Source: Myxococcota bacterium
Lineage (GTDB): Bacteria; Myxococcota_A; UBA796; CAJQPC01
NCBI GenBank assembly: GCA_036012755.1
Contig: DASCPX010000087.1
Span: 1-64,000 of the forward strand
Length of the DNA stretch: 64,000 bases
Direction: 5' to 3'
Shown: piece by piece, positions 331-17,701 of the stretch
Layout of the letters: each line of letters starts with the position of its first letter
How positions within the stretch are numbered: the first letter of the stretch is position 1
Position numbers and translations under genes: made by a program
Notes under the pieces: generated by a model
Seen by the model: the letters and a program-made list of their open reading frames with translations, nothing else
Database searches by the model: none
What the model was told of the DNA's origin: nothing

Positions 331-1158
331 CTTCGACCCGCCGGAGCTGCCGCCACGGTCCTTGCTCCCCTTCTTGCCGTCGCCGGAGCCCAAGATGCGC
401 TCCGCCGAGTCCTTCGCCTTGCCGACGGTCTTCTCCGCCTCCTTCAAGGCGTCCTGGATCTCGGCCCACGGGGACTTGCTCTCGTCCTTGCTGGAGCGGT
501 TGGACGTGACCTTCGAGGCCGCGGACTTCGCATCCTTGATGATGAGCTGGGTCCCGGCAGGGATCTCGGTCCCGTCCTCGATGTCGTTGTCCTCCATGAT
601 CTGCTTGGTGGTGGTGTTGTTCGCCAACGCGACCGACGACGCCGTGGCGCCGCTCCCCGCGGTGACGAGCTTGACCGTGTCGCGCGGGAGGTGGGCCTCG
701 ACCTCGCCCGGAGCCCACTCCTTCATCTTCAGCGCGCAGCGAGCCCGGATGGGCGTACCGTCGCTTCCGAACATGAGGTACGTGACGTTCACGGACTCGA
801 CCACCGCGGTCAGCTGGAAGGAGCCCCAGGTGAACTTCACCTTTGGGGGCCTCTTCTTGTCTGTCGAGCCCTCGGAGAGCTTGACCACCGCGTTGGTCAG
901 GCAGAGGAGCCCGTTGACCCACTTCGTACGAACGTCGCTGTTTTCCTCGTTCGTAGTGTCGAAGTAGAGGTCCATCGAGACGACCATGGGGGCGCCCTTC
1001 TGGAACTCCAGGTTCGGGAGGGTCTGACCCTGGTCGTCGTGCTCCTTCCAGGAGACAGCCTTGTCGGCCTTGAACTCCTTCGGGTTGTACTGAACCTGGA
1101 AGGGAGGGTATCCGGCCTCTAGGTCGATGAAGCTGGCCTTACCACCAGATGTTGCCAT
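1..1158 (-). CDS. eCIS tube-initiator protein (Afp7/Pvc7-like CIS tube domain + LysM-like domain) with long Gly/Ser/Lys tail; 3' end outside window
   Basis: Not in the ORF track because its stop lies outside the window. Manual translation from ATG 1158 (AGGAGG RBS upstream): MATSGGKASFIDLEAGYPPFQVQYNPKEF...LEFQKGAP...DLYFDTT...RPPKVKFTWG...SVNVTYLMFGSDGTPIRARCALKMKE, then a LysM-like segment and GGSKG repeats. Confidence 0.85.
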   Translation of the reverse strand, partial: MATSGGKASFIDLEAGYPPFQVQYNPKEFKADKAVSWKEHDDQGQTLPNLEFQKGAPMVVSMDLYFDTTNEENSDVRTKWVNGLLCLTNAVVKLSEGSTDKKRPPKVKFTWGSFQLTAVVESVNVTYLMFGSDGTPIRARCALKMKEWAPGEVEAHLPRDTVKLVTAGSGATASSVALANNTTTKQIMEDNDIEDGTEIPAGTQLIIKDAKSAASKVTSNRSSKDESKSPWAEIQDALKEAEKTVGKAKDSAERILGSGDGKKGSKDRGGSSGGSKGSRGGSKGGRSGGGRAGGSKGGRSGGGSGRGGAGGAKGERGGGGSKGPKAGGASKGPKAGGSKGVGSKGGAKGGSKGGGSKGGGSKGGAKAKAEADAGSKGGGSKGGGSK

Positions 1159-4100
1159 CGTTGTCCTCCTGGCGACGTTCCTGGCGGAGCTCAAGCTCCC
1201 TCACGACGACTTCGAGAACCTCACGACCGAGGGCCTCGATGTCGACGCTTGCCATAGCCGCCGACTCCGCATTGGAGATGTCCCCGCCTTCCGTCATCCG
1301 CGAGTCCGGACGATCCGCGTGAGCAAGGCGAGCCTCGCGCAGCGCATCGCCGGTCCGCGAAGACTCGGCGAGGTGTATGAGATTACGAAGCTTCTTGGCG
1401 AGCTTCGAGACCTTGTCGTCCCCGATGGCGCCGCTCGTTGCAGCGGTCGCCTTGGGTTTGAGGCCGGTCCAGCCGCTCACGACCCGCGCACTACGGCGGG
1501 CGCGACCGGCGCCTGTGCGAACTGCCCGCGCCGAAGATGGGCGTCTGGCCCCGCTCCGGCGCTCCGCAACGTCAGCGCCATGCGCCGACGCCCGAATCTG
1601 CTCTATGACCTGGACCACCGGTCGCGGGAGCGTCGAGCTCTTCAGCTCGTTCCCACGGGTCAGGATGATCTCGATGATCTCTCGAGGATCGGTAGCCCTG
1701 ACGAGGCCCGCCACCAACTCGGTCGTCGAGCGCAAGCGGTCGGGCACGGTGGCGCGCTCGGCCCAGCCAGGCGCGCCCTTCATCGGCACGCCGCGCTGAG
1801 ACTCGGCCATCACGTCGTGCAGCTGGGGACGATCGATCCCATCGGGTGTGATCATGTCGGGACGGCCCAGGCCGGCCCCTCGGCGAGCGCTCACCCAGGG
1901 AGCGTTGGGGGTCTGCCACACACCGGCGCCGACGAACTGGCCAGGCTGGGTCCTGAAGCTCCGGGCGAAGGCTCCGCGGTAGGCATCCGTCGCGCCGACG
2001 GCCACCCGAGCACCGACCCAGTCCATCGGGCGGGTCTCGCCGAGACGGGCCCCCACCAACGGCGTCGAGGCCGTCCTGCCGGAGCGAGCTCCAGCGAACT
2101 CGCCAGACTGCGTGAGCCAGGTCTCCGTGGGCATCCAGAGACCCCCACCCGTGCGCATGCGACGAGCCGAAGGTCCCGGCGGCATTCCAGGGGACGGCGC
2201 GCTCACCGAGGGGCTCCAGTCCGCTGCGGATCGGGGCCGTGACTGCGTGCGATGGCTGGTGGCGCCGACGAAGTCACCGCTGTCGGTGCGCACCCCGCGA
2301 GTGGGCGCATGCCGCCTCGACGCTGTCCGGTGGAAGCCGGGGCCGCGCTCTGTCTCTTCCCTGGGAACATCTGGCTGGATGACGTGGGCATCCCGCGCTG
2401 GGCTGACCGAGGCATAGGCGACCGGTCCGCGCAAGCGGCGCTCGGCGGCATCCGCGCTCCTGGGAGCGACCGGAGCAGCCCAGGTCGAGCTGGCCGCGCG
2501 AGCCGCCGCCTCGCCGACCAGCGGCACCTCTACGGCCCGGTCCGCCGCCTTCTGGGCGGGAGAACGACGGGTCTTGAAGGTGGCCGCAGGCTGGTAGGGC
2601 ACAGCGCGCCAGGGCTTCTCCACGACCTTCACCGTCGCATGGGGCCGCTCGGCCTTCAGCCTCCTGGCCAGCTTGGTGGCTTCCTCGACGGACTCTACGA
2701 CCAGCGGGGCGAGCAGCGTGCCGGTGTCGACGCGGGGAGCCATCCGCGGGAGCAGGCTGCCACGCGAGGCGGCCGGCGTTCCGGTCGTGGCGAGGCGCTC
2801 TGCGGCCCAGGTGGAAGTGCGCGCACCGATCCACTCGCCATCAGCGGTCTGCGTGCTGCGTGCTGCCGTGAAGATGCCCTTGTCGGTCTTCACCGCCCGG
2901 GACTGCTCGATCGACGAGCTGGAGGTCACCGCGCTGGTTGCGCCAACGAAGCCAGTGGCCGCCGTCCGCATCGCCCTTGCCGCGGCGTGGGCCGAGGCGC
3001 GGGTGGTCAGGCTCCTCGAGCCCGTCCAGTCACCAGCGGTGGTCTGGCCAGAGCGCGCACCGACGAACTCGCCTTCGGGCGTACGGAACGTCCCGCTGGG
3101 ACCGAGGTCTCCTGTCGCGGTCCGATGAACGCGCGCTGCAGGGTCCTCGCGCCGAGCGGTACGAACCGAGGATGACGGCGCCACTGGGGTCGTCGTCTTC
3201 CTGAACGCGCGGGCTCGGGTGTAGGCGCCGGTCTCCGTGCGGACGATCCGGGCAGAGGAGCCGACCGCCGTCGACGGGACGGGACTCGGAGCCAGTCGGT
3301 CGGGGCCGCGCACGCTGCGCGGAGTCCGCACGACGGGAGAGGTGGAGAGCTGGGGCTGGACCTGCTGACCACGAACGACCCGCGCGCCTGCGTGAGCCGT
3401 CTGCGAGGGCTTCGCCGATGGGCTCGCCCAGGGGCTCGCGCCCTGCGTCTGGGCCTCGTCGTGGGTGATGACCTCCATCGACGGGCTGCTGCCCAGGACT
3501 GGACGCAGGCCTCGACGGCGTCGCCGCTGTGGGGCGGCTCGTCCCCGCGCGACCTCGGTCGGGCGAGCGCCGACGGTGGCCTCTGGGGCCTCTTGCATGA
3601 CGGTGCGCAGGACCCGCGCGCCGACAATCCGCTGGAGGACACGGCGAACCTCGATGACACGAACGCGCTCTTCGAGGTGTTCGGTCCGGCGAAGCACGGT
3701 CTCGACCTTGCGCCGGGACGCCGGGTGGAGCTCGAAAGAGGCCTCGGCGAGGGCCCTACGGAGGGGATCCCTGCCTGTCGCCGCCTGGGCGAGACGCCTC
3801 CCCACGCGCTCCGCGGGCCGATCCGCGGCCCGAGAGACCGCGAGGCGAGAGGGCGCCAGCGCACGAGCAGTGAGGGGCTCGAGGCGGCGGGTCAAAAAGG
3901 GCACGCTCGGGACGTACTCGGCGCGCCCCAGGGGCTCCGCCACGCGGGCCGGAGCGCCCTTGGACGTGATCCAGGCGTCTGCGCCGCTGCGGACGCGGAC
4001 GGCTGCACCGCTCGCGGTTCCCCACGCGGAGGACGGGGCCTGGCCGGCCTCGGCGTACTCCGGCGGGATCCACGGCTCCGGCAGGGCCATGTCCGACATA

Positions 4101-4447
4101 CCGAGGGTTCGCACACCAAAGAAGGTGGGTCGGCTCGATTCGCCGGGGAAGCGCCTGCGGGCAGCAGTGCGAGTACCGACGATGCGCGAGGCCCACTGGC
4201 GTTCGCGACGCTGCCGCCGCCAGCGAGCCAGCGCCAGGCGCCGCATGGTCTGGTAGAAGGGCCGCGCAGAGACGAAGGAGAAGGCCTCCTCCGCTTGCTC
4301 GTCAGTCGCGCCCTCCCCCAGCTCGAGCCAGGGGTCTGCGAGGCCAAAGCGCGCATAGAAGGCCGGAGACAGCCCGATTCGGGGCCGCCTGACCGTCCGG
4401 CGCTCCAAGCGCTCGACGAGGCGCTTTCCGGGGTAGCGTCCATCCAT
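1139..4447 (-). CDS. Large Arg/Ala-rich eCIS-associated protein (tape-measure or cargo candidate), 1102 aa
   Basis: Starts 3 nt after the tube gene stop and overlaps the next gene by 20 nt; C-terminal helix VDIEALGREVLEVVVRELELRQERR resembles ends of proteins in this position in eCIS loci; internal TxxG[ED][FW]xGA[RT]S repeats. Confidence 0.65.
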   Translation of the reverse strand: MDGRYPGKRLVERLERRTVRRPRIGLSPAFYARFGLADPWLELGEGATDEQAEEAFSFVSARPFYQTMRRLALARWRRQRRERQWASRIVGTRTAARRRFPGESSRPTFFGVRTLGMSDMALPEPWIPPEYAEAGQAPSSAWGTASGAAVRVRSGADAWITSKGAPARVAEPLGRAEYVPSVPFLTRRLEPLTARALAPSRLAVSRAADRPAERVGRRLAQAATGRDPLRRALAEASFELHPASRRKVETVLRRTEHLEERVRVIEVRRVLQRIVGARVLRTVMQEAPEATVGARPTEVARGRAAPQRRRRRGLRPVLGSSPSMEVITHDEAQTQGASPWASPSAKPSQTAHAGARVVRGQQVQPQLSTSPVVRTPRSVRGPDRLAPSPVPSTAVGSSARIVRTETGAYTRARAFRKTTTPVAPSSSVRTARREDPAARVHRTATGDLGPSGTFRTPEGEFVGARSGQTTAGDWTGSRSLTTRASAHAAARAMRTAATGFVGATSAVTSSSSIEQSRAVKTDKGIFTAARSTQTADGEWIGARTSTWAAERLATTGTPAASRGSLLPRMAPRVDTGTLLAPLVVESVEEATKLARRLKAERPHATVKVVEKPWRAVPYQPAATFKTRRSPAQKAADRAVEVPLVGEAAARAASSTWAAPVAPRSADAAERRLRGPVAYASVSPARDAHVIQPDVPREETERGPGFHRTASRRHAPTRGVRTDSGDFVGATSHRTQSRPRSAADWSPSVSAPSPGMPPGPSARRMRTGGGLWMPTETWLTQSGEFAGARSGRTASTPLVGARLGETRPMDWVGARVAVGATDAYRGAFARSFRTQPGQFVGAGVWQTPNAPWVSARRGAGLGRPDMITPDGIDRPQLHDVMAESQRGVPMKGAPGWAERATVPDRLRSTTELVAGLVRATDPREIIEIILTRGNELKSSTLPRPVVQVIEQIRASAHGADVAERRSGARRPSSARAVRTGAGRARRSARVVSGWTGLKPKATAATSGAIGDDKVSKLAKKLRNLIHLAESSRTGDALREARLAHADRPDSRMTEGGDISNAESAAMASVDIEALGREVLEVVVRELELRQERRQEDNDGNIWW

Positions 4448-4450
4448 GGC

Positions 4451-4987
4451 CTAGCTCTCCTTCCTACCCTTCCTACCCTTGCTCACCTTCACGCCGTGGT
4501 GTCGCCTTCCTCGCCCTCCTCGCCTTCCTTGGCTTCCCTCCTTCCTACTCTTGCTCACCTTCACGCCGTGGTGGGCGAGCTCGACCATCTCGACGGCGAG
4601 CTCGGCCCCGTTGGCGACGAAGTTCGGCCCCTCGTAGGCGACGGGCCATGCGTTGACAAAGGAGTACCGGCGGACCTCGTCCATCGCGAGGTTCTTCATG
4701 ATGATAGCGCCGTTGCGGCGCTTGGTGAAGCCGTCCTCGAGGAACTCCTGCCGCCAGTCCAGGAGCGAGCTGTCGGTGGTGACGCCGTACCGGAGCACGA
4801 TGTTCTCCCACCGGCTCTGACCGGGCAGCTTGTGGACGCGGTGGTTGACACCACCCTCCTCGATCTCGAAGACCTGGGTCGAGGTCTTCAAGCCGTTGCA
4901 CTCCATGAACTGCGCGATTGCCACCCCGTCGATCTCCAGCTGGAAGATGAAGTTGCCTTCGGGGTCGGTGATTTCACGTTCGGCCAT
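4451..4987 (-). CDS. Phage tail tube protein (T4 gp19-like, eCIS tube 2) with basic C-terminal extension
   Basis: F.LEIDG...FMECNGL...EEGGVN...KLPGQSRWENIVLRYG...RRNGAI...NAWPVAYEGP...E.VELAHHG motifs; GGAG RBS. Confidence 0.92.
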   Translation of the reverse strand: MAEREITDPEGNFIFQLEIDGVAIAQFMECNGLKTSTQVFEIEEGGVNHRVHKLPGQSRWENIVLRYGVTTDSSLLDWRQEFLEDGFTKRRNGAIIMKNLAMDEVRRYSFVNAWPVAYEGPNFVANGAELAVEMVELAHHGVKVSKSRKEGSQGRRGGRGRRHHGVKVSKGRKGRKES

Positions 4988-5004: not shown

Positions 5005-6216
5005 CTACACCACCTCGGACTGGCCGAGGCGCAGGTCGATGGTGATGTGCTCGGTGGTGGTGATGGGGCGCAGACGCACCATCACATTCAGCCGACCGGC
5101 TTCGCGTTCGGCCTTTGGATTCGTCTCTGCGTCGCAGCGGACCTCGTAGTCCTTGCCGGCTGCCTTGCCGGTCAGCATTCCCTTCTCCCAGAACTCGTCG
5201 AGCCTGGCTCGCACGTCCCGCTCCAGGATCTTCCAGATGTTGGCGCTGTTCCGCTCGAAGACGACCCACTCGTTGTCCCGGCGGAGCTGCTCGCAGATCA
5301 TGGAGACGATGCGGCGGGAGTTGATGAACTCCCAGCGGTAGTCGGTGCTCATCGTGCGAGCCCCGAAGACCACGACCCCTCGCCCGGGTTGGGTGACGAT
5401 CGGGTTGACGCTGTGGTCGGCCAGCTCTCCGGCCTCGACCCAGGTCATCTCGACCGAGGGGTGGGTCACAGCGCGGACCGGGACGTTGGCCGGCGGCCAG
5501 ACGACGCCAAAGGGCTGATGCTCGCGCTCGGTGCGGGCATAGACGCCGAGGACGGAGCCCGACGGCGGGATGATCTCGTCGCCCTTCATCAGCCAGGGGT
5601 AGTAGACGGCGCCGTAGCTGTAGAGCTCGTTGCCGTCCCCTCTGAACTGAGAGAGCCAAGCCACCAGCGCGTCGCCGTGGAGGTCGCGGGGAGCGTCGAT
5701 GATGAGGAAGCGGTTCGCCATCTCCCGGCAGTGCAGGAGCAACTCGCGGTACAGCACGTCCGCGTGGCCGGTGACCTCGCCGGTCTTGGTGAAGTCGAAG
5801 CGCATGTAGGCCGCCCCGGGCACGGCGATCAGCGCGATGTCCTCTTCCGCGCGGAGGCGCTCCAGGAGAGGCTCGAGCACGCTCTGGGCGGAGGCAGCTG
5901 CGCGGAGGTCGTCCTCGCTGTCGATGCAGACACCGAAGAGCTGGCAGTAGTCCCCGCCGTTGTCGAAGAAGGCCTGCACGGCCCGTCGCGACGCGGGGTC
6001 GAAGAGGCGCTGGAGGGGATGGTCCAGCAGCTCTCTGGGACGCCGAAGCGTCAGTTCGACGAAGTCGCCCGCGGCGGCGTCACGAGGCCACCGGCCTCTT
6101 GGAATGAAGCCCAGAATGGCTGCGATGTCACAACGCACCAGCCCAAATCTGCGGGTCGGCAGAGCAGTGTGCTGGACGGAGATGCCGGGCTTCATCGCGG
6201 CTCCCGAGAGGTTCAT
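5005..6216 (-). CDS. Phage tail sheath family protein (eCIS sheath 2); alternative start at 6195
   Basis: KPGISV N-terminus, AVQAFFDNGG, YGAVYYPWL, PPSGSVLGVYAR, PPAN, VFGARTM, FINSRR, WVVFERN sheath motifs. Confidence 0.92.
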   Translation of the reverse strand: MNLSGAAMKPGISVQHTALPTRRFGLVRCDIAAILGFIPRGRWPRDAAAGDFVELTLRRPRELLDHPLQRLFDPASRRAVQAFFDNGGDYCQLFGVCIDSEDDLRAAASAQSVLEPLLERLRAEEDIALIAVPGAAYMRFDFTKTGEVTGHADVLYRELLLHCREMANRFLIIDAPRDLHGDALVAWLSQFRGDGNELYSYGAVYYPWLMKGDEIIPPSGSVLGVYARTEREHQPFGVVWPPANVPVRAVTHPSVEMTWVEAGELADHSVNPIVTQPGRGVVVFGARTMSTDYRWEFINSRRIVSMICEQLRRDNEWVVFERNSANIWKILERDVRARLDEFWEKGMLTGKAAGKDYEVRCDAETNPKAEREAGRLNVMVRLRPITTTEHITIDLRLGQSEVV

Positions 6217-6279: not shown

Positions 6280-6444
6280 CTATCGGGAAGTGTTGATCTT
6301 CTCGTTGATCCGGGAGATTTCCTTGACCCACGAGTGGCGCTCTTTGTGCGACAGCTCGAAGAGGGTCTCCCGGTCCCAGTGGAAGTGGTACGCGATGAAG
6401 GCTACCTCCTTGAGAATATTCTCTAGGGGGTAGCTTACGATTCC
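6280..6444 (-). CDS. DUF6760-like segment, probably translated as a -1 frameshift extension of the upstream tail chaperone
   Basis: YPLENILKEVAFIAYHFHWDRETLFELSHKERHSWVKEISRIN matches the small eCIS DUF6760 pattern; no credible own start codon (GTA at the overlap position). Confidence 0.8.
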   Translation of the reverse strand, partial: GIVSYPLENILKEVAFIAYHFHWDRETLFELSHKERHSWVKEISRINEKINTSR

Positions 6445-6464
6445 CCCAGGCGCCCAAACTCCTT
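6401..6464 (-). promoter_or_regulatory. Programmed -1 ribosomal frameshift cassette
   Basis: On the mRNA: AAGGAG (6464-6459), 11 nt, G GGG GAA (6447-6441), 6-nt spacer UCGUAA, then a 13-bp stem-loop GCUACCCCCUAGAGAAUAUUCUCAAGGAGGUAGC (6434-6401). Confidence 0.75.
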
Positions 6465-6803
6465 GTCGAAGCGGGCACCACATTCGGGGCAGCTCACCCG
6501 TACCGTGGCCTCATCCTCGTTGATGCGGTTGTACATCTCTTCGAGGAACCTCAAGTCGCCTGCGAACAGGTTCTCGACGACTCCGGTGTTGACCTCTGCG
6601 AGATTCCCGAGGCGAGTAATGACCCTGCTCAGCAAGACGATGATGAGGTAGGCGCGGTTGCGTTGGACGCGCATGTCGTTCAGAGGAACGATCTCGTCCT
6701 TCGCATTCGCCAGCCGCATCACGCCTTCCTTGTGGATATTGCCGTCTTTGTCGACGTACCCACGGGGCAGGATGAAATCGTACTCGGTCTTGAGTTCACT
6801 CAC
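6435..6803 (-). CDS. eCIS tail assembly chaperone-like protein
   Basis: TEYDFILPRGYVD...EGVMRLANAKDEI...LLSRVITRLG...ENLFAGDL..LEEMYNRIN...CPECG..RLGES; lies directly after the tube gene; GTG start. Confidence 0.8.
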   Translation of the reverse strand: MSELKTEYDFILPRGYVDKDGNIHKEGVMRLANAKDEIVPLNDMRVQRNRAYLIIVLLSRVITRLGNLAEVNTGVVENLFAGDLRFLEEMYNRINEDEATVRVSCPECGARFDKEFGRLGES

Positions 6804-6859: not shown

Positions 6860-7303
6860 CTAGGCGCGCTCCACCTTCTCGACCGCGATCTCGACCTTCT
6901 CGATGGCCATGCCGGATGTATCGGAATCCATGTCCGGCACGTACCACTTGCAAGGCCACCCTTCGTAGAAGTTGTACCGTGCGACCTCGGTCTCGCCGTC
7001 CTGGTCCAGGACAACGATCGAGCCCGCGCGACGGTCGATCTTTCCGTCTTCGATGTTCTTCCGCCATTGCCACAGGTCATTTGTCGCGGTGTAGCCACGC
7101 TCGAGAACGATGTTCGCGTACGTGGTGCGACCCGGCTTTTTGCGAACGACCTTGTCGTTCCCCTGCTTGAACTCGATGATCTCAGTCTCCGAGTCCATTC
7201 CACTGATGGACTTGAAGCCGCCGATGATCACTTTGGTGTCATTGATGACACCCTGGATCTCCAGCAGGAAGTGGTAAGCACCGTAGAGCTCTTCGGTGGG
7301 CAT
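6860..7303 (-). CDS. Phage tail tube protein (T4 gp19-like, eCIS major tube)
   Basis: YHFLLEI...GGFKSISGM...EFKQG...RKKPGRTTYANIVLERG...LWQWR...RRAGSIVVLD...GWPCKW motifs. Confidence 0.95.
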   Translation of the reverse strand: MPTEELYGAYHFLLEIQGVINDTKVIIGGFKSISGMDSETEIIEFKQGNDKVVRKKPGRTTYANIVLERGYTATNDLWQWRKNIEDGKIDRRAGSIVVLDQDGETEVARYNFYEGWPCKWYVPDMDSDTSGMAIEKVEIAVEKVERA

Positions 7304-7372: not shown

Positions 7373-9166
7373 TTATTCCTCGATCAGGCCACCGCCATCC
7401 CACTGGCCGATATTAAAGATAACAAATTCTGCGGGCTTCACCGGACAAATTCCGACCTGGACGTTCACCTGCCCCGCATCGATGAGGTAGCGAGGGTTCG
7501 TCTCCTCGTCACACTTGACGTAGAACGCCTCCTCAGGCGTGTTTCCGAAGAGGGCCCCGGCGCGCCAGACGCGAAGGAGATACGCGCGGACATCGCGGAC
7601 GAGCTTCTTCCAGAGGGTCTGATCGTTGGGCTCGAAGACGGCCCACTGCGATCCGATCATGATCGACTGCTCGACCATGATGAAGAGGCGGCGCACGTTG
7701 ATGTACTTCCAGGAGGGGTCGCTCTTGGTCCCGAGGGTGCGCGCACCCCAGACCCGGATGCCGCGATCCTTGAAGACGCGGATGACGTTGATCCCGCGCT
7801 CGTTGTACTGGCCCTGCTCGATCCGGTTGATGTTCTGTGACAGGCCGGTGATCCCGAGCACCAGCTCGTTGGCCGGCGCCTTGTGCACGCCGCGCTCACC
7901 ATCGACCCGGGCGTAGATCCCGCAGAGGTGGCCGCTGGGCGGAACGAAGAGCTCGTTCTTCTCGGTCCTGAGCAGCTTGCGACGGTTGGGGCCGGTGACC
8001 TTGATGTGGTCCTGGTTGCCGGAGAACCAGCTCGGCTTGGTGACCTTGAGCCAGGGCACATACAGCGCGCCGTAGCCCTTCTGGCTGGCCGGGATGTCCA
8101 TGCCGCCGTCAGAGACGATGGGGCCGTCGAGGATGGCAAAGCGATCCTTGCGGATCTCGCACATCTCGAGCATCTCCTTCTGCTGGTTCGGGCTCAGGCC
8201 CGGCGCGGCCATGATGGCCATGTCGTCGACGTCGTCGAAGGCGTAGAGCCCGAGCTTGTCGGCCTGGTTCTCGCGAACCGAGACGTGGAGATGGCTCGCA
8301 CCCATCAGGTAGACGTAGGCCTTGCCGCCGCCGTTGTCGTAGAAGCCGTTGACGCCTGCGACGAAGTTGAAGACGCTCGGCTGGCTCAGGAAGTCCTGGA
8401 ACTCCTTCTTCAGCGCGGCGTCGCGGGCGAGGGCCTCGTAGACGGCGTCGGCGGCATCGTCCGGGTCGTCGAAGACAGCGCCGGGGATGATGTCGTCGAG
8501 CGGGCGGGTGGCCAGCAGGTACTCGGCGAAGAAGCTCTGCAGCCAGCGGAAGAACTCGCTCTTGTTCGTCACCGCCACGGGCGGGATCGAGTACTCGGAG
8601 TTCAGCGCCGACTCGGCCGCGCCCTCGAAGTTGAAGCCGTAGACCGCGAGCAGATCCTTGGCGTGCCTCGGCTGGGGGCGATCGAGGGCGAAGGTGTCGC
8701 TGATCTTGTTGAGCAGCGCCTCGACGGCCTCGTCGTCGTCCGTGACGACCTGGCCCTTGAGGTCGAGGTGGATCTCGGGCAGCTGCACCTTCTTGGTCTT
8801 GTCAGCGGCATCCTCGATCTTCACGCGGCCCTTGGCGCCCTTGCCGAAGGTGACCTTGTGACCGTTGATCTCGAGCAGCTTGGCGACGTCCTTGACCTGC
8901 CGGTTCTTGAAGCGGAAGGCCTCTGTCAGGGCAGCGCCTGCCTCGGCCTTGTTGCCCGAGACCTTTCCAGCGGTGTCGACCAGCTGCGGCGGGACCTTGC
9001 CCTGCAGCGCTCGCCTGCCGTCGTTGCCAGAGACCGCCGTCGCGTCGCTGGGAGGGTTGAATTCGAAGAGGCCAAGAAAACCCGGAATAGCCGTCGAGAC
9101 ACTCTCGATCGGCTTGGGGCCACTGTCGACTTCGCGGATGTAGACGCCTGGAGTCTTGTATTCCAC
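7373..9166 (-). CDS. Phage tail sheath protein (eCIS major sheath)
   Basis: YKTPGVYIREVDSG start, GFYDNGG, YVPWL, PPSGH.CG, GVHKAPAN, VWGARTL, YINVRRL, WAVFEPN, PVKPAEFVIF. Confidence 0.97.
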   Translation of the reverse strand: MEYKTPGVYIREVDSGPKPIESVSTAIPGFLGLFEFNPPSDATAVSGNDGRRALQGKVPPQLVDTAGKVSGNKAEAGAALTEAFRFKNRQVKDVAKLLEINGHKVTFGKGAKGRVKIEDAADKTKKVQLPEIHLDLKGQVVTDDDEAVEALLNKISDTFALDRPQPRHAKDLLAVYGFNFEGAAESALNSEYSIPPVAVTNKSEFFRWLQSFFAEYLLATRPLDDIIPGAVFDDPDDAADAVYEALARDAALKKEFQDFLSQPSVFNFVAGVNGFYDNGGGKAYVYLMGASHLHVSVRENQADKLGLYAFDDVDDMAIMAAPGLSPNQQKEMLEMCEIRKDRFAILDGPIVSDGGMDIPASQKGYGALYVPWLKVTKPSWFSGNQDHIKVTGPNRRKLLRTEKNELFVPPSGHLCGIYARVDGERGVHKAPANELVLGITGLSQNINRIEQGQYNERGINVIRVFKDRGIRVWGARTLGTKSDPSWKYINVRRLFIMVEQSIMIGSQWAVFEPNDQTLWKKLVRDVRAYLLRVWRAGALFGNTPEEAFYVKCDEETNPRYLIDAGQVNVQVGICPVKPAEFVIFNIGQWDGGGLIEE

Positions 9167-9169
9167 GAC

Positions 9170-10024
9170 TTATTCCTCCGTGTCTTCTGGCTTCTTTCTA
9201 TCGAAGCGCCTGCGTACGTTGTGGGCCTCTGGCCCGGGGGGTTTGCTGATCCGTCCGGAAGTGGGCCGGCCCATGACACGGGACCTCGGCTTCTTCTTCT
9301 GGTGCGGGAAGTGGGTGTCCTTCGGAAGTAGGCCTTCCTCGTGATCGCCCATTGCGATGCCGGAGCCGCCCTCTGTCGAGGTCAGCGGGCCATCGAGCGC
9401 CACGCGGGCCCTGTACGTCAGGAAGGGACGGTAGGGCGCCTCGTGGAGCGTGTAGAGGTTGATGGCGTCTCCGACGGTGAGATCGTCGACCAGCGCGAGG
9501 CTGACCTTCTCGACCTGCAGCTCGGCGCGCCAGGTGTCGCCCTTGGGATCCCAGGGCTCGCCGTAGCTGTTGACCGCCTCGCCCGTGGGCAGGATGAAGC
9601 GCCTCGGGCGGTAGATCAGCCGTGGGGTGCTGTTGAGCGTCAGCAGGACCCAACCGAGGAGGCGCTCCGCGTCCGAGCGGAACTTCGCGTGCACGCCGAC
9701 GAGGTAGAAGAGGTCCATCAACAGCGGCGGCCGGTGGTAGAAGTACTCCTTCTCCCCGTTGGCGCCGGTGACCTCCAGCGGGGCGAGGCGCAGCCGCTTC
9801 TGGTTCATCAGGTTGGGGTTCATCCCCGCCCGGTACATGTAGACGTAGATGACCTCTTCCCGGTCCTTCGGGACGAACTTCAGGTCCTCTTCGAGGCGCG
9901 GCGGACGCTCCGTGACGTCGTAGCAGTCGAGGAGCCGCTTGTGGATGGCCTCCGTGACCTCGCCGATCGTCTGGTAGGACGACAGCGGCCCTGTCTGGAA
10001 CTGCTGGGGCTGGAGCTCGGTCAC
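9170..10024 (-). CDS. Pvc16/Afp16-like (DUF4255) cap/terminator protein
   Basis: TIGEVTEAI, IYVYMY...NPNLMN, RPPLLMDLFYLV, LLGWVLLTL, PYRPFLTYRARV; GTG at 10024 overlaps the upstream TGA. Confidence 0.8.
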   Translation of the reverse strand: MTELQPQQFQTGPLSSYQTIGEVTEAIHKRLLDCYDVTERPPRLEEDLKFVPKDREEVIYVYMYRAGMNPNLMNQKRLRLAPLEVTGANGEKEYFYHRPPLLMDLFYLVGVHAKFRSDAERLLGWVLLTLNSTPRLIYRPRRFILPTGEAVNSYGEPWDPKGDTWRAELQVEKVSLALVDDLTVGDAINLYTLHEAPYRPFLTYRARVALDGPLTSTEGGSGIAMGDHEEGLLPKDTHFPHQKKKPRSRVMGRPTSGRISKPPGPEAHNVRRRFDRKKPEDTEE

Positions 10025-10458
10025 GGCTCCACTTTCCACAGGCGGGTGCGCGGGGCGCTCGGCACCGTGCGGGTCTCCGCGGGGCTCTTGAAGGAGATCC
10101 GCGGGCGCTCGACGACGCCGAGGAGGTCGCTCAGACGATCGGGTCTGGCGAGCCTCTGGCGCGGCTCGATCACCACCTGGCGCTGCGGCATGCTCGTGTG
10201 GAGCTTGTATGGCGTGCGCACCAGGCGGATCAGCTGCGGCGCGTTGGGCTCTGGTCTGGCCCCCGGGTGCAGCCTCCGGACCTTGCCCTCGCGCCGCCTG
10301 CGGGGCTCCTTCAGCTTGGGCTCCAGCACCTCGCGATCCAGCCTGCCACCGAGCTTCGCGGCCAGCTCGGTGAGACCGATCTGGTGCTCTCCCGGAAGCC
10401 TCCGGTGAAGCCGCGCGGCGATGCCTTTCAAGCGTTCTCCTGGGGGACCGTGTGCCAC
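10021..10458 (-). CDS. Basic hypothetical protein, first gene of the eCIS operon
   Basis: Its TGA overlaps the cap gene GTG (GTGA), suggesting translational coupling; no family recognised. Confidence 0.5.
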   Translation of the reverse strand: MAHGPPGERLKGIAARLHRRLPGEHQIGLTELAAKLGGRLDREVLEPKLKEPRRRREGKVRRLHPGARPEPNAPQLIRLVRTPYKLHTSMPQRQVVIEPRQRLARPDRLSDLLGVVERPRISFKSPAETRTVPSAPRTRLWKVEP

Positions 10459-14989: not shown

Positions 14990-15614
14990 GCCACGGAAGA
15001 TCCCCGGAGAGGATACCGTCGATCGCCTGTTCGAGCGCGAGGAGCAGCTCGAGCGCGTCAGCGTGCCCGGTGGTGGCGAAGCCTACACCGGCCCCGAGGC
15101 CACGCGAGCTCTGCAGGCACTCGACGCCGAGGCCATGACCGTCGACGGCAGCATCATCGTGCAGGAGGGCTTCGATCCGAGCCGTCCAGCGGATGCAGCC
15201 CTGTTCGCCCACGAGCAGTACCACGTCGAAGAGGGTCGCCCCGGCGCGCTCACTCACGCCATCCACGACGCCGAGGAGGTCGCGGCTCGTGCTGTCGAGT
15301 CGATGGTCTTCCATCGAATGACCGGCGGATACGAGGGCGGCTACCAGCCCGGTGGCGGAGCAGGAGATGCCAAGGGGGGGCAGACCCCCGACCACGGCGG
15401 ACGGGGCACCAGCGAGTTCAACGCCGGCGCCGACACGAAACCAGAGGCCGTCGACGCAGATCCGGACGCCGCCCGCGGCTACCTGGCGATGAAGAAGCTG
15501 GGCATGAACCATGTCGACATCGTCGACAAGCTGGCCCGCGAGGTCGGCTCTGCGATGGACCAGCAGAAGGAGATCGGCCTGGGCAGGACGAGCGACCTGA
15601 AGGGCACGATCTAG
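14988..15614 (+). CDS. DUF4157-like (eCIS core) HExxH domain protein
   Basis: AAAGGAG RBS before ATG 14988; YTGPEA.RAL.AL.AEAMTV..SI...FDP...ALFAHEQYHV...EEVAARAVE. Confidence 0.7.
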   Translation: MPRKIPGEDTVDRLFEREEQLERVSVPGGGEAYTGPEATRALQALDAEAMTVDGSIIVQEGFDPSRPADAALFAHEQYHVEEGRPGALTHAIHDAEEVAARAVESMVFHRMTGGYEGGYQPGGGAGDAKGGQTPDHGGRGTSEFNAGADTKPEAVDADPDAARGYLAMKKLGMNHVDIVDKLAREVGSAMDQQKEIGLGRTSDLKGTI

Positions 15615-17701
15615 ACGAGGTCCTCGACCTGGTCCCAGAAGTCGCCGAAGTGCACGCGGTTGACCTGCTTGCCCATCTTGATCATCTCCATGCCCACCGC
15701 GCGGACGACGTGGCGCTGGTGGACCGCCGTGTCCTCTGTGGCGGCGAGGATGCAGGCGTTGATCGCGGCGTTGACGATGGGGCCGCCGCTGAGGATGAAC
15801 TGGTCGGCGATGTAGTGGAGCTCTACGTCGTCGGCTCTCGGCGCTGCCTTCGGGATGGCGCGCTCCCAGAGCTCCAGGCGCTGCTCGGGGCTGGGCATCG
15901 GGAACTCGACGACAGCGCCGAAGCGGCGGAGGAAGGCCGCGTCGATGTTCTCCTGGAGGTTGGTCGTCAGGATCGCCGCGCCCTCGAAGACCTCGAGGCG
16001 CTGGAGCAGGAAGCTGACCTCCTGGTTCGCGAAGCGGTCCTGGGCCTGCTTGACCTCGCCGCGTGAGCCGAAGAGCGCGTCGGCCTCGTCGAAGAGGATG
16101 ACCGCCGTGCCCCCCTCTGCCGCGTCGAAGATCTCCTTGAGGTTCTTCTCGGTCTCGCCCACCCAGCGAGAGATCACCTGGGAGATGTCCACCTTGAACA
16201 TGTCGAGGCCCAGCTGGTTTGCGATGACCTCTGCGGCCATCGTCTTGCCGGTGCCCGGACCGCCCGAGAAGAGAGCCTTGATGCCGTAGCCGCGCGCTCG
16301 GACATCTCGAGCGCCCCAGCGGTGGAAGACCGTCTCCTGGTGCTCGATGTAGTCGACGAGACCCTGGAGCTTGCCCTTGACCTTCTCCTCGAGGATGAGG
16401 TCGTCCCACTGGTAGCGAGGCACGACGTGCTGGGCGAGGCCGCGAAACTCGGGGCGAGCGCCCTCTCGCGCCGCTGCCCAGAGGACCTCCTCCTTCGGGG
16501 GCCGTCCACCGGACTCGGCGTCGGCCCGCTTCATCACCCGGTCGATCGTGGTTCCGCCGATGGCGTAGAAGCGCTCCGCGATCTCGGGGGCCGGCGTGGG
16601 GTCCCAGCCGCGCTCCTCGAAGGCCTGCGTCCAAGCGTCGATGCGCTCCGGGAAGGTCGACTTGCCACACATGATCGTCACGCTCGGTCGATCAGTGCCC
16701 AGCAGGGTCTTCACGCTGCGACGGTCCGCGGCGCCGACGAGCACCGGGCAGTCCAGCGAGGCCAGGGTCGAGCCCAGGGCGATGACCCTGAGGCGCTGAC
16801 CCGGGTCGTCCTGGGCCTCGATGAGGTTGATCAGGTAGGGGATCGCTCGGGCCAGGCGACACTCGCGGATGAGGTCCCAGGGCTGCTCGAGGTACTCCAT
16901 GCAGCGCTCGAGGTCCACGCGCACCAGCGGGCGCTTCACCCGGCGCGCGATCTCCAGGGCCACCCCCTCGCGGGAGCCCTCTGCGGCGCCGACGATGACG
17001 TAGGTGATGGCGCGGTCGAGCTCGTCGAACTCCTCCAGCCGCCTCTTCGTCGAGCCCGGCACGAAGGGCGAGATGCGCACATCCAGGGGGACGAAGCCCG
17101 GCGAGGAGGGCAGCTCCTCCTCCTCCAGGAGCCACCGGAGCAAGCGGCCGCTGGGATGGACCCGCCTGGAGGTGTGGGTCTCGGCTCCGTCCGGCGGATT
17201 CAGCAAGAGCAGGCGGTTCTTGACCAGCGGCGAGGCCGACATCAGGCGGGCCTGGAGCTGGAGGCGCTGGATGCGCTCGGTCCGCAGCACCCGCGTCGCC
17301 AGGTCGACCGTGAGGTAGCCCTGGTTCAGGTTGTCGTTGAGGTAGGCGAAGATCTTCGAGTACCCGGCGCTGATCTCCGGAGCCAGGGACAGGAGGATGA
17401 GGTCCGCGTCGTCGCCGCCGAGCTGGAAGGCCTGGCGGAGACGCTGGAGGCGCCCACCCGGAGCGTCGCGCAGGCTCTCGCTGGCGCTGATGGCCGCGCC
17501 GAGACCGACGCTGGTCTCGGGGTAGTCGATCTCGCCGTGGGCGCGCAAGAGCGCATCGACCTCGTCGTCCGTGATGACCGAACCCCAGAACTGGCCCTTG
17601 GCCCGCATGGCCGGACGGGCGCGCTGGCGACGCACCGCGCGCAACAGCAACAGGTCGGTGCGTCGCAGTCTCCGGGCGAGCTCTTCGTAGACGGTGGACA
17701 T
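15611..17701 (-). CDS. eCIS AAA+ ATPase (Afp15/Pvc15-like)
   Basis: LAPEI...KIFAYLND...YLTVDLA N-terminal module; WDDLIL, LFSGGPGTGKTMAAEV, SRWVGETEKNL, LFDEADALFG.R, DRFANQEVSFLLQRLE, AFLRRF. Confidence 0.92.
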   Translation of the reverse strand: MSTVYEELARRLRRTDLLLLRAVRRQRARPAMRAKGQFWGSVITDDEVDALLRAHGEIDYPETSVGLGAAISASESLRDAPGGRLQRLRQAFQLGGDDADLILLSLAPEISAGYSKIFAYLNDNLNQGYLTVDLATRVLRTERIQRLQLQARLMSASPLVKNRLLLLNPPDGAETHTSRRVHPSGRLLRWLLEEEELPSSPGFVPLDVRISPFVPGSTKRRLEEFDELDRAITYVIVGAAEGSREGVALEIARRVKRPLVRVDLERCMEYLEQPWDLIRECRLARAIPYLINLIEAQDDPGQRLRVIALGSTLASLDCPVLVGAADRRSVKTLLGTDRPSVTIMCGKSTFPERIDAWTQAFEERGWDPTPAPEIAERFYAIGGTTIDRVMKRADAESGGRPPKEEVLWAAAREGARPEFRGLAQHVVPRYQWDDLILEEKVKGKLQGLVDYIEHQETVFHRWGARDVRARGYGIKALFSGGPGTGKTMAAEVIANQLGLDMFKVDISQVISRWVGETEKNLKEIFDAAEGGTAVILFDEADALFGSRGEVKQAQDRFANQEVSFLLQRLEVFEGAAILTTNLQENIDAAFLRRFGAVVEFPMPSPEQRLELWERAIPKAAPRADDVELHYIADQFILSGGPIVNAAINACILAATEDTAVHQRHVVRAVGMEMIKMGKQVNRVHFGDFWDQVEDLV

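Follow-up and report, generated by a model that had tools for sequence, protein, structure and literature searches.

In lambda and other long-tailed phages, a small chaperone gene follows the tube gene, and a −1 ribosomal slip near its 3′ end adds a short C-terminal extension, giving gpG and gpGT. Mycobacteriophage L5 uses the slippery heptamer GGGGGAA, and the chaperone of phage Mu uses a −2 shift. Roughly a thousand actinophage sites have been annotated with GGGGGAA, under the name 'fivetwo' motif (PMC10885494), and phage P2 makes its E (91 aa) and E+E′ (142 aa) proteins by a −1 shift on TTTTTTG, with no hairpin (PMC3091744). In lambda, G binds the tape measure and T binds the tube protein, with gpG and gpGT at a ratio of 30:1 (PMC5009743). 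Shifting of 6–7% is given for a HK97-like chaperone cluster in PMC3711429, the main text of which does not contain GGGGGAA. Chaperones of T4-like phages use a mechanism other than frameshifting, according to the title of Vladimirov 2022 (Virology 566:9), cited in PMC13222765.

Signals with two stimulators are known from E. coli dnaX and IS911-type cassettes, where an SD sequence, a slip site and a stem-loop are arranged in a three-part layout, with the stem-loop 5–9 nt 3′ of the slip site. Both SD interference and 3′ stem-loops stimulate −1 shifts (PMC10885494, PMC5009743).

The gene set of sheath, tube, Pvc16_N terminator and AAA+ ATPase defines eCIS (PMC10020575). Those of lineage II are reported to have no afp14 and to carry two to three subtype-specific genes without known domains (PMC6899500, PMC10066040, PMC11566945), and Streptomyces cargo proteins display remote homology to tape measures (PMC13277306). 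The original prediction was aware of no description of such frameshifting for eCIS. In agreement, a search of freely accessible papers found no paper that names DUF6760 and none that ties eCIS to a frameshift. The word 'frameshift' is absent from the main text and six supplementary files of PMC10020575, and from the main texts of PMC10066040, PMC4122934, PMC6899500, PMC11566945, PMC8213781, PMC13277306, PMC11126660 and bioRxiv 10.64898/2026.05.27.728243.

Here we argue from comparative sequence analysis that lineage II eCIS very probably use lambda-style G/GT −1 ribosomal frameshifting, a reading to which we assign a probability of about 90%. The mechanism is textbook, while its placement in eCIS, its double stimulator and the resulting interpretation of DUF6760 appear to be undescribed in the papers searched.

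The chaperone–DUF6760 junction of the window

The window, a 64,000-nt stretch of a Myxococcota contig (GCA_036012755.1, DASCPX010000087.1), contains the eCIS gene set, and all features given here lie on its minus strand. A gene for the Pvc16_N terminator, the eCIS marker (9170–10039, start uncertain; PF14065, E 2e-11), precedes a first tail sheath gene (7373–9166; PF17482, PF04984) and a tail tube gene (6860–7303; PF06841, E 5e-34), which is directly upstream of the chaperone gene, G. Downstream of the DUF6760 segment, T, stand a second sheath gene (5005–6216; PF17482, PF04984), a second tube-family gene (4451–4987; PF06841, E 9e-36) and a gene for a 1102-aa low-complexity protein rich in Arg, Ala, Ser and Thr (1139–4447; no Pfam match at E 0.5). 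An AAA+ ATPase with a WHD domain, probably that of the eCIS, is encoded at 15611–17701 (PF00004, PF22977). In its sheath, tube, Pvc16_N and AAA+ ATPase genes the locus resembles lineage II eCIS such as the Streptomyces CIS/SLP and the Halogeometricum CIS (dbeCIS subtypes IIa–d).

The G gene (6803–6435) encodes a tail-assembly-chaperone-like protein of 122 aa with a C-terminal CxxC, assigned from a phrog_508 match and from model folds. It ends in the codons CTG GGG GAA TCG TAA, exactly as predicted. The slippery site G GGG GAA occupies 6447–6441 with GGG in the zero frame, and the zero-frame stop TAA (6437–6435) lies within the 6-nt spacer and hairpin foot. T (6441–6280; PF20546, E 3e-15) has 53 post-slip codons and a stop at 6282–6280; as claimed, it is in the −1 frame relative to G and has no usable start, the overlap codon being GTA. 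Computation confirms the lengths proposed for the two products, 122 aa and, after a −1 slip, 174 aa, the products themselves being deduced. The AAGGAG predicted 11 nt 5′ of the heptamer is present at 6464–6459 as a putative 5′ stimulator. The putative 3′ stimulator, a stem-loop placed 6 nt 3′ of the heptamer, is found at 6434–6401 with 13 pairs and −18.0 kcal/mol. Its codons CTA, AAT and ATT were described as rare, and they indeed make up 1.3%, 5.7% and 3% of their codon families in this genome. A terminal in-frame G GGG GAA occurs in two of the 6448 gene-like ORFs of the genome, in which G and T are single-copy.

In the mechanism that we propose, most ribosomes would stop at TAA and yield G (122 aa), while a minority would be held between SD pairing about 11 nt upstream and the hairpin 6 nt downstream, and would slip back by one base at the heptamer. 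In the P site, the Gly tRNA would re-pair perfectly, GGG to GGG. In the A site, the Glu tRNA might re-pair on GGA with a G-U pair, as discussed for GGGGGAA in PMC10885494, or the site might be filled afresh in the −1 frame. The slipped ribosome would then read DUF6760 and produce GT (174 aa).

The layout of this arrangement is that of dnaX and IS911-type cassettes, yet these slip on A AAA AAG with tRNA-Lys, whereas the eCIS site is a G run with a Gly tRNA in the P site. It shares with P2 E/E+E′ the contractile-tail context and similar product sizes, and DUF6760 weakly matches Phage_P2_GpE, but P2 slips on TTTTTTG without a hairpin and the eCIS site has both a G run and a hairpin. Further, downstream structure is called rare at phage G/GT sites (PMC3091744), whereas the eCIS site has an SD as well as a hairpin. 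Finally, the eCIS locus is host-encoded and capsid-less, unlike lambda-type G/GT phages, and a phage origin of the family was set aside after tblastn of G and of T against 50,697 phage records gave no match.

Conservation of the proposed slip site and its flanking elements

The junction was compared across 287 loci, of which 276 contain G and T, ten G only and one T only. They comprise the best 80 of 136 loci from genome contigs together with the locus of the window, and 90 of about 140 matches from a search of the phylum. Plasmids contributed 22 of 46 records, metagenomes the best 80 of at least 598 loci, and viral contigs 14 loci. The viral loci came from a profile scan, a single-sequence scan of viral contigs having given nothing. 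Phyla beyond that of the window are represented by the plasmid records and the metagenome contigs. Six of the 276 G+T rows had no anchor motif (L051, L114, L121, L131, L231, L273) and were left out before counting, as were 28 duplicates, the ten G-only rows (two at contig ends) and the T-only row (at a contig end), leaving 242 distinct anchored junctions. Counts of junctions overstate independence, because the sequences are related. Named hosts belong to the Actinomycetota, Cyanobacteriota, Bacillota, Pseudomonadota and Spirochaetota, and in Streptomyces plasmids and in pHBOR03 of H. borinquense, too, the tube gene is followed by the G–DUF6760 pair. Of 301 genomes sampled from the phylum of the window, 125 have DUF6760. 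A tube gene ends less than 400 nt before G in 113 of the 175 loci with enough upstream DNA. Among the best 80 of 136 genome-contig loci, the nearest relatives are MAGs labelled as Myxococcota, Deltaproteobacteria or Proteobacteria. Six records labelled as Klebsiella, Enterobacteriaceae or Bifidobacterium (L002, L004, L018, L032, L060, L064) have a G 84–91% identical to that of the window and are probably mislabelled MAGs.

Both the −1 phase and a slip site proved to be conserved across these eCIS junctions, contrary to the outcome that the original prediction said would refute it. T is in the −1 phase in 273 of the 276 G+T rows and in 240 of the 242 distinct anchored junctions. The three phase-0 rows are L246, with two single-base losses in homopolymers; L231, with indels at the junction; and L126, in which a second copy of G is broken inside, its tail still terminating in the full signal. 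An in-frame G|GGG lies within nine codons of the G end in 233 of 240 junctions and within eleven codons in 235, leaving five junctions that lack it. Chance would provide one in about 4% of nine-codon stretches; the bodies of the G genes have 110 in 26,180 codons. Conservation of GGGGGAA itself, as first proposed, applies in full only to the G|GGG part, and the A-site codon varies: among 233 heptamers GGGGGAA accounts for 165, GGGGGGA and GGGGGGG for 18 each, GGGGTGA for 14, GGGGGAG for 11, GGGGTAA for four and others for three. G GGG GAA departs from the canonical X XXY YYZ form, in that exact re-pairing is available in the P site only; GGGGGGA and GGGGGGG, which have the canonical form, together amount to 36 of 233. 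Within the clade of the window, GGG and GAA are each found at the slip site in 88 of 88 junctions, and both are minority codons in the same genes, at about 20% and 25% of their respective families.

The distance from the heptamer to a conserved Tyr codon is 8 nt in 216 of 233 junctions, while the G stop moves, at offsets of 0, 3, 15 or 18 nt after the heptamer. Consequently, the position of T is fixed to the slip site and not to the stop, the identity of which is also free (TAA 104, TGA 68, TAG 68). Of the two −1 codons after the heptamer, the first specifies Ile or Val in 191 and the second in 168 of 216 junctions, with any third letter, so coding constraint in the T frame starts at the slip site.

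The SD-like motif was assessed among 111 homologues as anti-SD pairing of −5 kcal/mol or lower, 24–10 nt upstream of the heptamer. Such pairing was found in 82 of 111 against a background of 17.8%, and pairing exceeded the synonymous expectation in 96 of 111, compared with 60 of 111 for a control region. In 39 homologues GGAG stops 11 nt short of the heptamer, and in 18 GAGG stops 10 nt short of it; the optimum SD distance for −1 stimulation is 10–14 nt. It is the GGAG/GAGG core that homologues keep, and not the full AAGGAG of the window. The motif is weak in the plasmid rows of Actinomycetota (2 of 7).

For the hairpin, the window by itself is not decisive: compared with dinucleotide shuffles, its 81-nt fold does not reach significance (z −1.52, 17 of 200). 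The case for the hairpin therefore rests on the homologues. When the protein was held fixed and synonymous codons were redrawn, 88 of 118 diverse junctions folded better than chance (mean z −2.95), against 6–12 of 116–118 in four control windows. In the main class of junctions, with a sense codon in the A site, the hairpin was found in 66 of 70 tested. Across 111 junctions, ten named pairs are paired in 81.3% of cells, and seven of the ten display two-sided changes. Three of five pair measures lie above all 500 shuffles and the remaining two give 11/500 and 14/500, values that relatedness inflates. Slid controls pair at 34–61%, and the hairpin exceeds them in both pairing and covariation, again with inflation by relatedness. 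Codon usage points in the same direction, as the 3′ arm encodes its Val by GTA in 191 of 240 junctions against a background of 7%; in the stem region Tyr is TAC in 221, Glu is GAG in 225 and Pro is CCC in 195 of 240. Two Streptomyces loci (L112, L119) and one of Treponema (L131) have strong stems of different sequence in the same place. With default settings, RNAalifold returned no consensus structure on the 111 diverse junctions, nor on three of the four subsets grouped by source. Under ribosum scoring it recovered the stem in every subset but that of the 13 plasmid rows. Across homologues, it is the lower part of the stem that is conserved and not the rest.

Rival readings and divergent junctions

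RefSeq annotation lists DUF6760 as a separate gene where a 4-nt GTGA or ATGA overlap exists. A general version of that view is that translation of DUF6760 starts by coupling or reinitiation at the overlap (GTGA, ATGA or some non-canonical codon) and that the G run serves as its ribosome-binding site. Indeed, in 66 of 240 junctions a GTG or ATG falls in the nine codons that precede the conserved Tyr. However, the same stretch lacks any ATG, GTG or TTG in 174 of 240; the overlap codon ranges freely over the Val and Ile codons, with GTA in the window; and in 84 of 240 none of the three start codons occurs at all between the previous in-frame stop and Tyr. The last group is the reason for dismissing ATG 6483 as a start of T; independent initiation at this codon had been named as a finding that would count against frameshifting, and it is not conserved among the 240 junctions. 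The usual SD-to-start distance is 5–10 nt, and the SD, being about 20 nt from the overlap codon, is too far away for initiation there. Further, the hairpin is kept even where a start codon is present (41 of 50 main-class junctions), and it would cover the start region. Separate initiation does suit L287, the two haloarchaeal loci and the junctions whose A site holds a stop codon, yet as an explanation of the family we consider it very unlikely. RNA polymerase slippage, in which one G is added within the G5–G7 run by transcriptional realignment, would give the same protein as frameshifting, and a G run is what is conserved. Of 34 longer DUF6760 proteins, each a singleton cluster, 23 are in-frame joins of G and T, which speaks for this process, but they are probably sequencing indels and we do not count them as natural fusions.

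What tells against the polymerase is that codon phase and the spacing to the SD and the hairpin are both constant for the run, that the hairpin is still untranscribed while polymerase sits on the run, and that the preference for GAA over GAG in the A site (165 against 11) matters to a tRNA and not to a polymerase. In addition, a contig from an RNA library covers 6374–6696 without a difference, gap or listed insertion, a weak point as contigs drop rare variants and this one may derive from DNA. Overall, polymerase slippage seems very unlikely. A last reading would give the hairpin and G run some other purpose, such as mRNA processing, pausing or sequestering of the SD-like AAGGAGGT in the 3′ arm, with T rarely or never made. 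The match of AAGGAGGT to an SD is perfect and some loci have G without T, but T is strongly conserved at the protein level and no conserved start follows the 3′ arm, where ATC, GTC, GTG, ATT and CTC are found. This reading strikes us as highly improbable. Ribosomal −1 frameshifting is the reading preferred here.

The original prediction suggested that DUF6760 may in general be the T half of a chaperone. This stands for the main class, formed by 217 of the 235 G|GGG junctions, and is doubtful for the remaining 18 and for haloarchaea. In the 18 junctions, G GGG is followed by TGA or TAA in the A site, the hairpin is present in one and a start codon in 14. The majority come from one distant clade or are second copies carried by genomes of the window's phylum. 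They may use coupled initiation or P-site slippage at the stop; four are without a start. Members of the divergent G/T class include L135–L153, L157 and L159, which are second copies in the window's phylum, and L108, L154, L167, L193 and L282. GTG mostly stands at the overlap in this G GGG TGA/TAA class, a possible switch from frameshifting to coupled initiation. Two haloarchaeal loci have the −1 phase and an ATGA overlap, with G GGA AA(C/T) three codons upstream of it, which on the basis of these two loci is a possible archaeal −1 site. The haloarchaeal G proteins (L114: 6480–6520; L121: 1690–1725) also have a long acidic C-terminal extension.

Other loci differ in gene content. G occurs without a nearby T in eight complete-looking loci, namely three of Deinococcus, L123, L132 and three viral contigs. 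The viral contigs (L283, L285, L286) are AT-rich, and in them a short direct repeat of the end of G comes after the gene. Tandem or repeated copies of G are found in cyanobacterial and Treponema loci (L124: 806–1563; L126: 1200–1900; L131: 5983–9240), where only the last copy is linked to T, and the proteins P0155–P0162 consist of two or three tandem G domains.

The G and T proteins and their possible role

G resembles its proposed phage counterpart and T does so weakly, in line with the original prediction. Of 66 G homologues, 64 match phrog_508, 'tail assembly chaperone' (best E 3e-9). The G model (pLDDT 86) was compared with 48,161 chains, and the top folds were 3klu (Z 6.6), the HK97 chaperone 2ob9 (Z 5.5), 3fgx (Z 5.4) and 5ir0 (Z 4.3), followed by values of 2.9 or less. 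We take 3klu and 3fgx to be tail chaperones. For the top three folds, 87–93 residues aligned at an rmsd of 4.4–5.5; the similarity is modest, all Z scores being under 8. Foldseek of the G model against the PDB gave nothing at E ≤ 0.001, with the HK97 chaperone at ranks 2 and 4, and a G profile gave nothing meaningful against the sequences of solved structures. Among predicted viral proteins, the best structural matches of G were gp26-type 'baseplate hub assembly' proteins of T4-like phages (E 7e-8 to 3e-5) and Mu gp41/FS-gp41 (E 8e-3 for FS-gp41). For T, homologues match Phage_P2_GpE in 22 of 65 cases, weakly and below the cut-off level of Pfam (best E 3e-4). The T model comprises three helices (pLDDT 93), and a fold search with this 54-aa model gave nothing at E ≤ 0.001. 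T is strongly conserved as a protein, with invariant Trp, His and Arg and with third positions free outside the stem. A complex prediction for T and the tube protein scored 0.00, which speaks neither for nor against contact.

A single CxxC terminates G (6480–6491 in the window); it is kept in at least 90% of A3 and absent from some G proteins (L125, L127). T has invariant or near-invariant His residues (6340–6390). Fusion of G and T might complete a metal site from the CxxC and His.

From the analogy with lambda, we think it probable that GT would be made at a low ratio to G. G would coat a long lumen protein, either a tape-measure-like ruler or cargo; T would recruit tube subunits and so start tube polymerisation; and both would leave before the particle matures. 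In S. coelicolor, Sco4251, encoded by the third gene of the sheath operon, is an uncharacterised protein detected in at least one preparation of particles (PMC10066040), and gene order suggests that it may be G. In the window, sheath 2 and tube 2 lie between G/T and the 1102-aa gene, and no typical tape-measure gene is directly downstream of T. The 1102-aa protein (4447–1139) is perhaps a lumen client of the chaperone, a candidacy given by its position only.

We tentatively extend this to a broader scenario, at odds that we would set a little short of even. Lineage II eCIS in at least six bacterial phyla would have kept the phage G/GT chaperone and upgraded it to a dnaX-like cassette with SD and hairpin; G and GT would thread a long non-canonical lumen protein, a ruler or effector, into the tube; the family would display switching between a single frameshifted gene and a coupled pair, in the stop-in-A-site class and in haloarchaea; and the haloarchaeal G GGA AA(C/T) may be an archaeal −1 signal. 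If true, threading of a lumen protein by G/GT would account for how length is set and cargo is loaded in systems described as having no tape measure, and would make both directly testable in these machines. With carriers of the site in host-encoded eCIS of Myxococcota, Actinomycetota, Cyanobacteriota, Bacillota, Pseudomonadota and Spirochaetota, the reading would add a widespread host-encoded −1 frameshift that combines two stimulators with a G-run site. It would explain DUF6760, now annotated as a separate gene, and would provide a function and mode of expression for this Pfam DUF and for unexplained subtype-specific genes of lineage II, including those of Streptomyces and Halogeometricum. 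By implication, many two-gene annotations would be wrong, and recoding or splitting G and T for heterologous expression would destroy the G:GT ratio.

Two further features of the window concern the genes downstream. The 1102-aa protein (1139–4447) contains repeated short motifs, and its C-terminal helix resembles, by eye, a small ORF after G in two Deinococcus loci (L128, L129). An ORF at 1–1194 has a long Gly/Ser/Lys-rich tail that runs beyond the window edge, and from its motif we presume that it resembles an Afp7-type tube-initiator/LysM gene.
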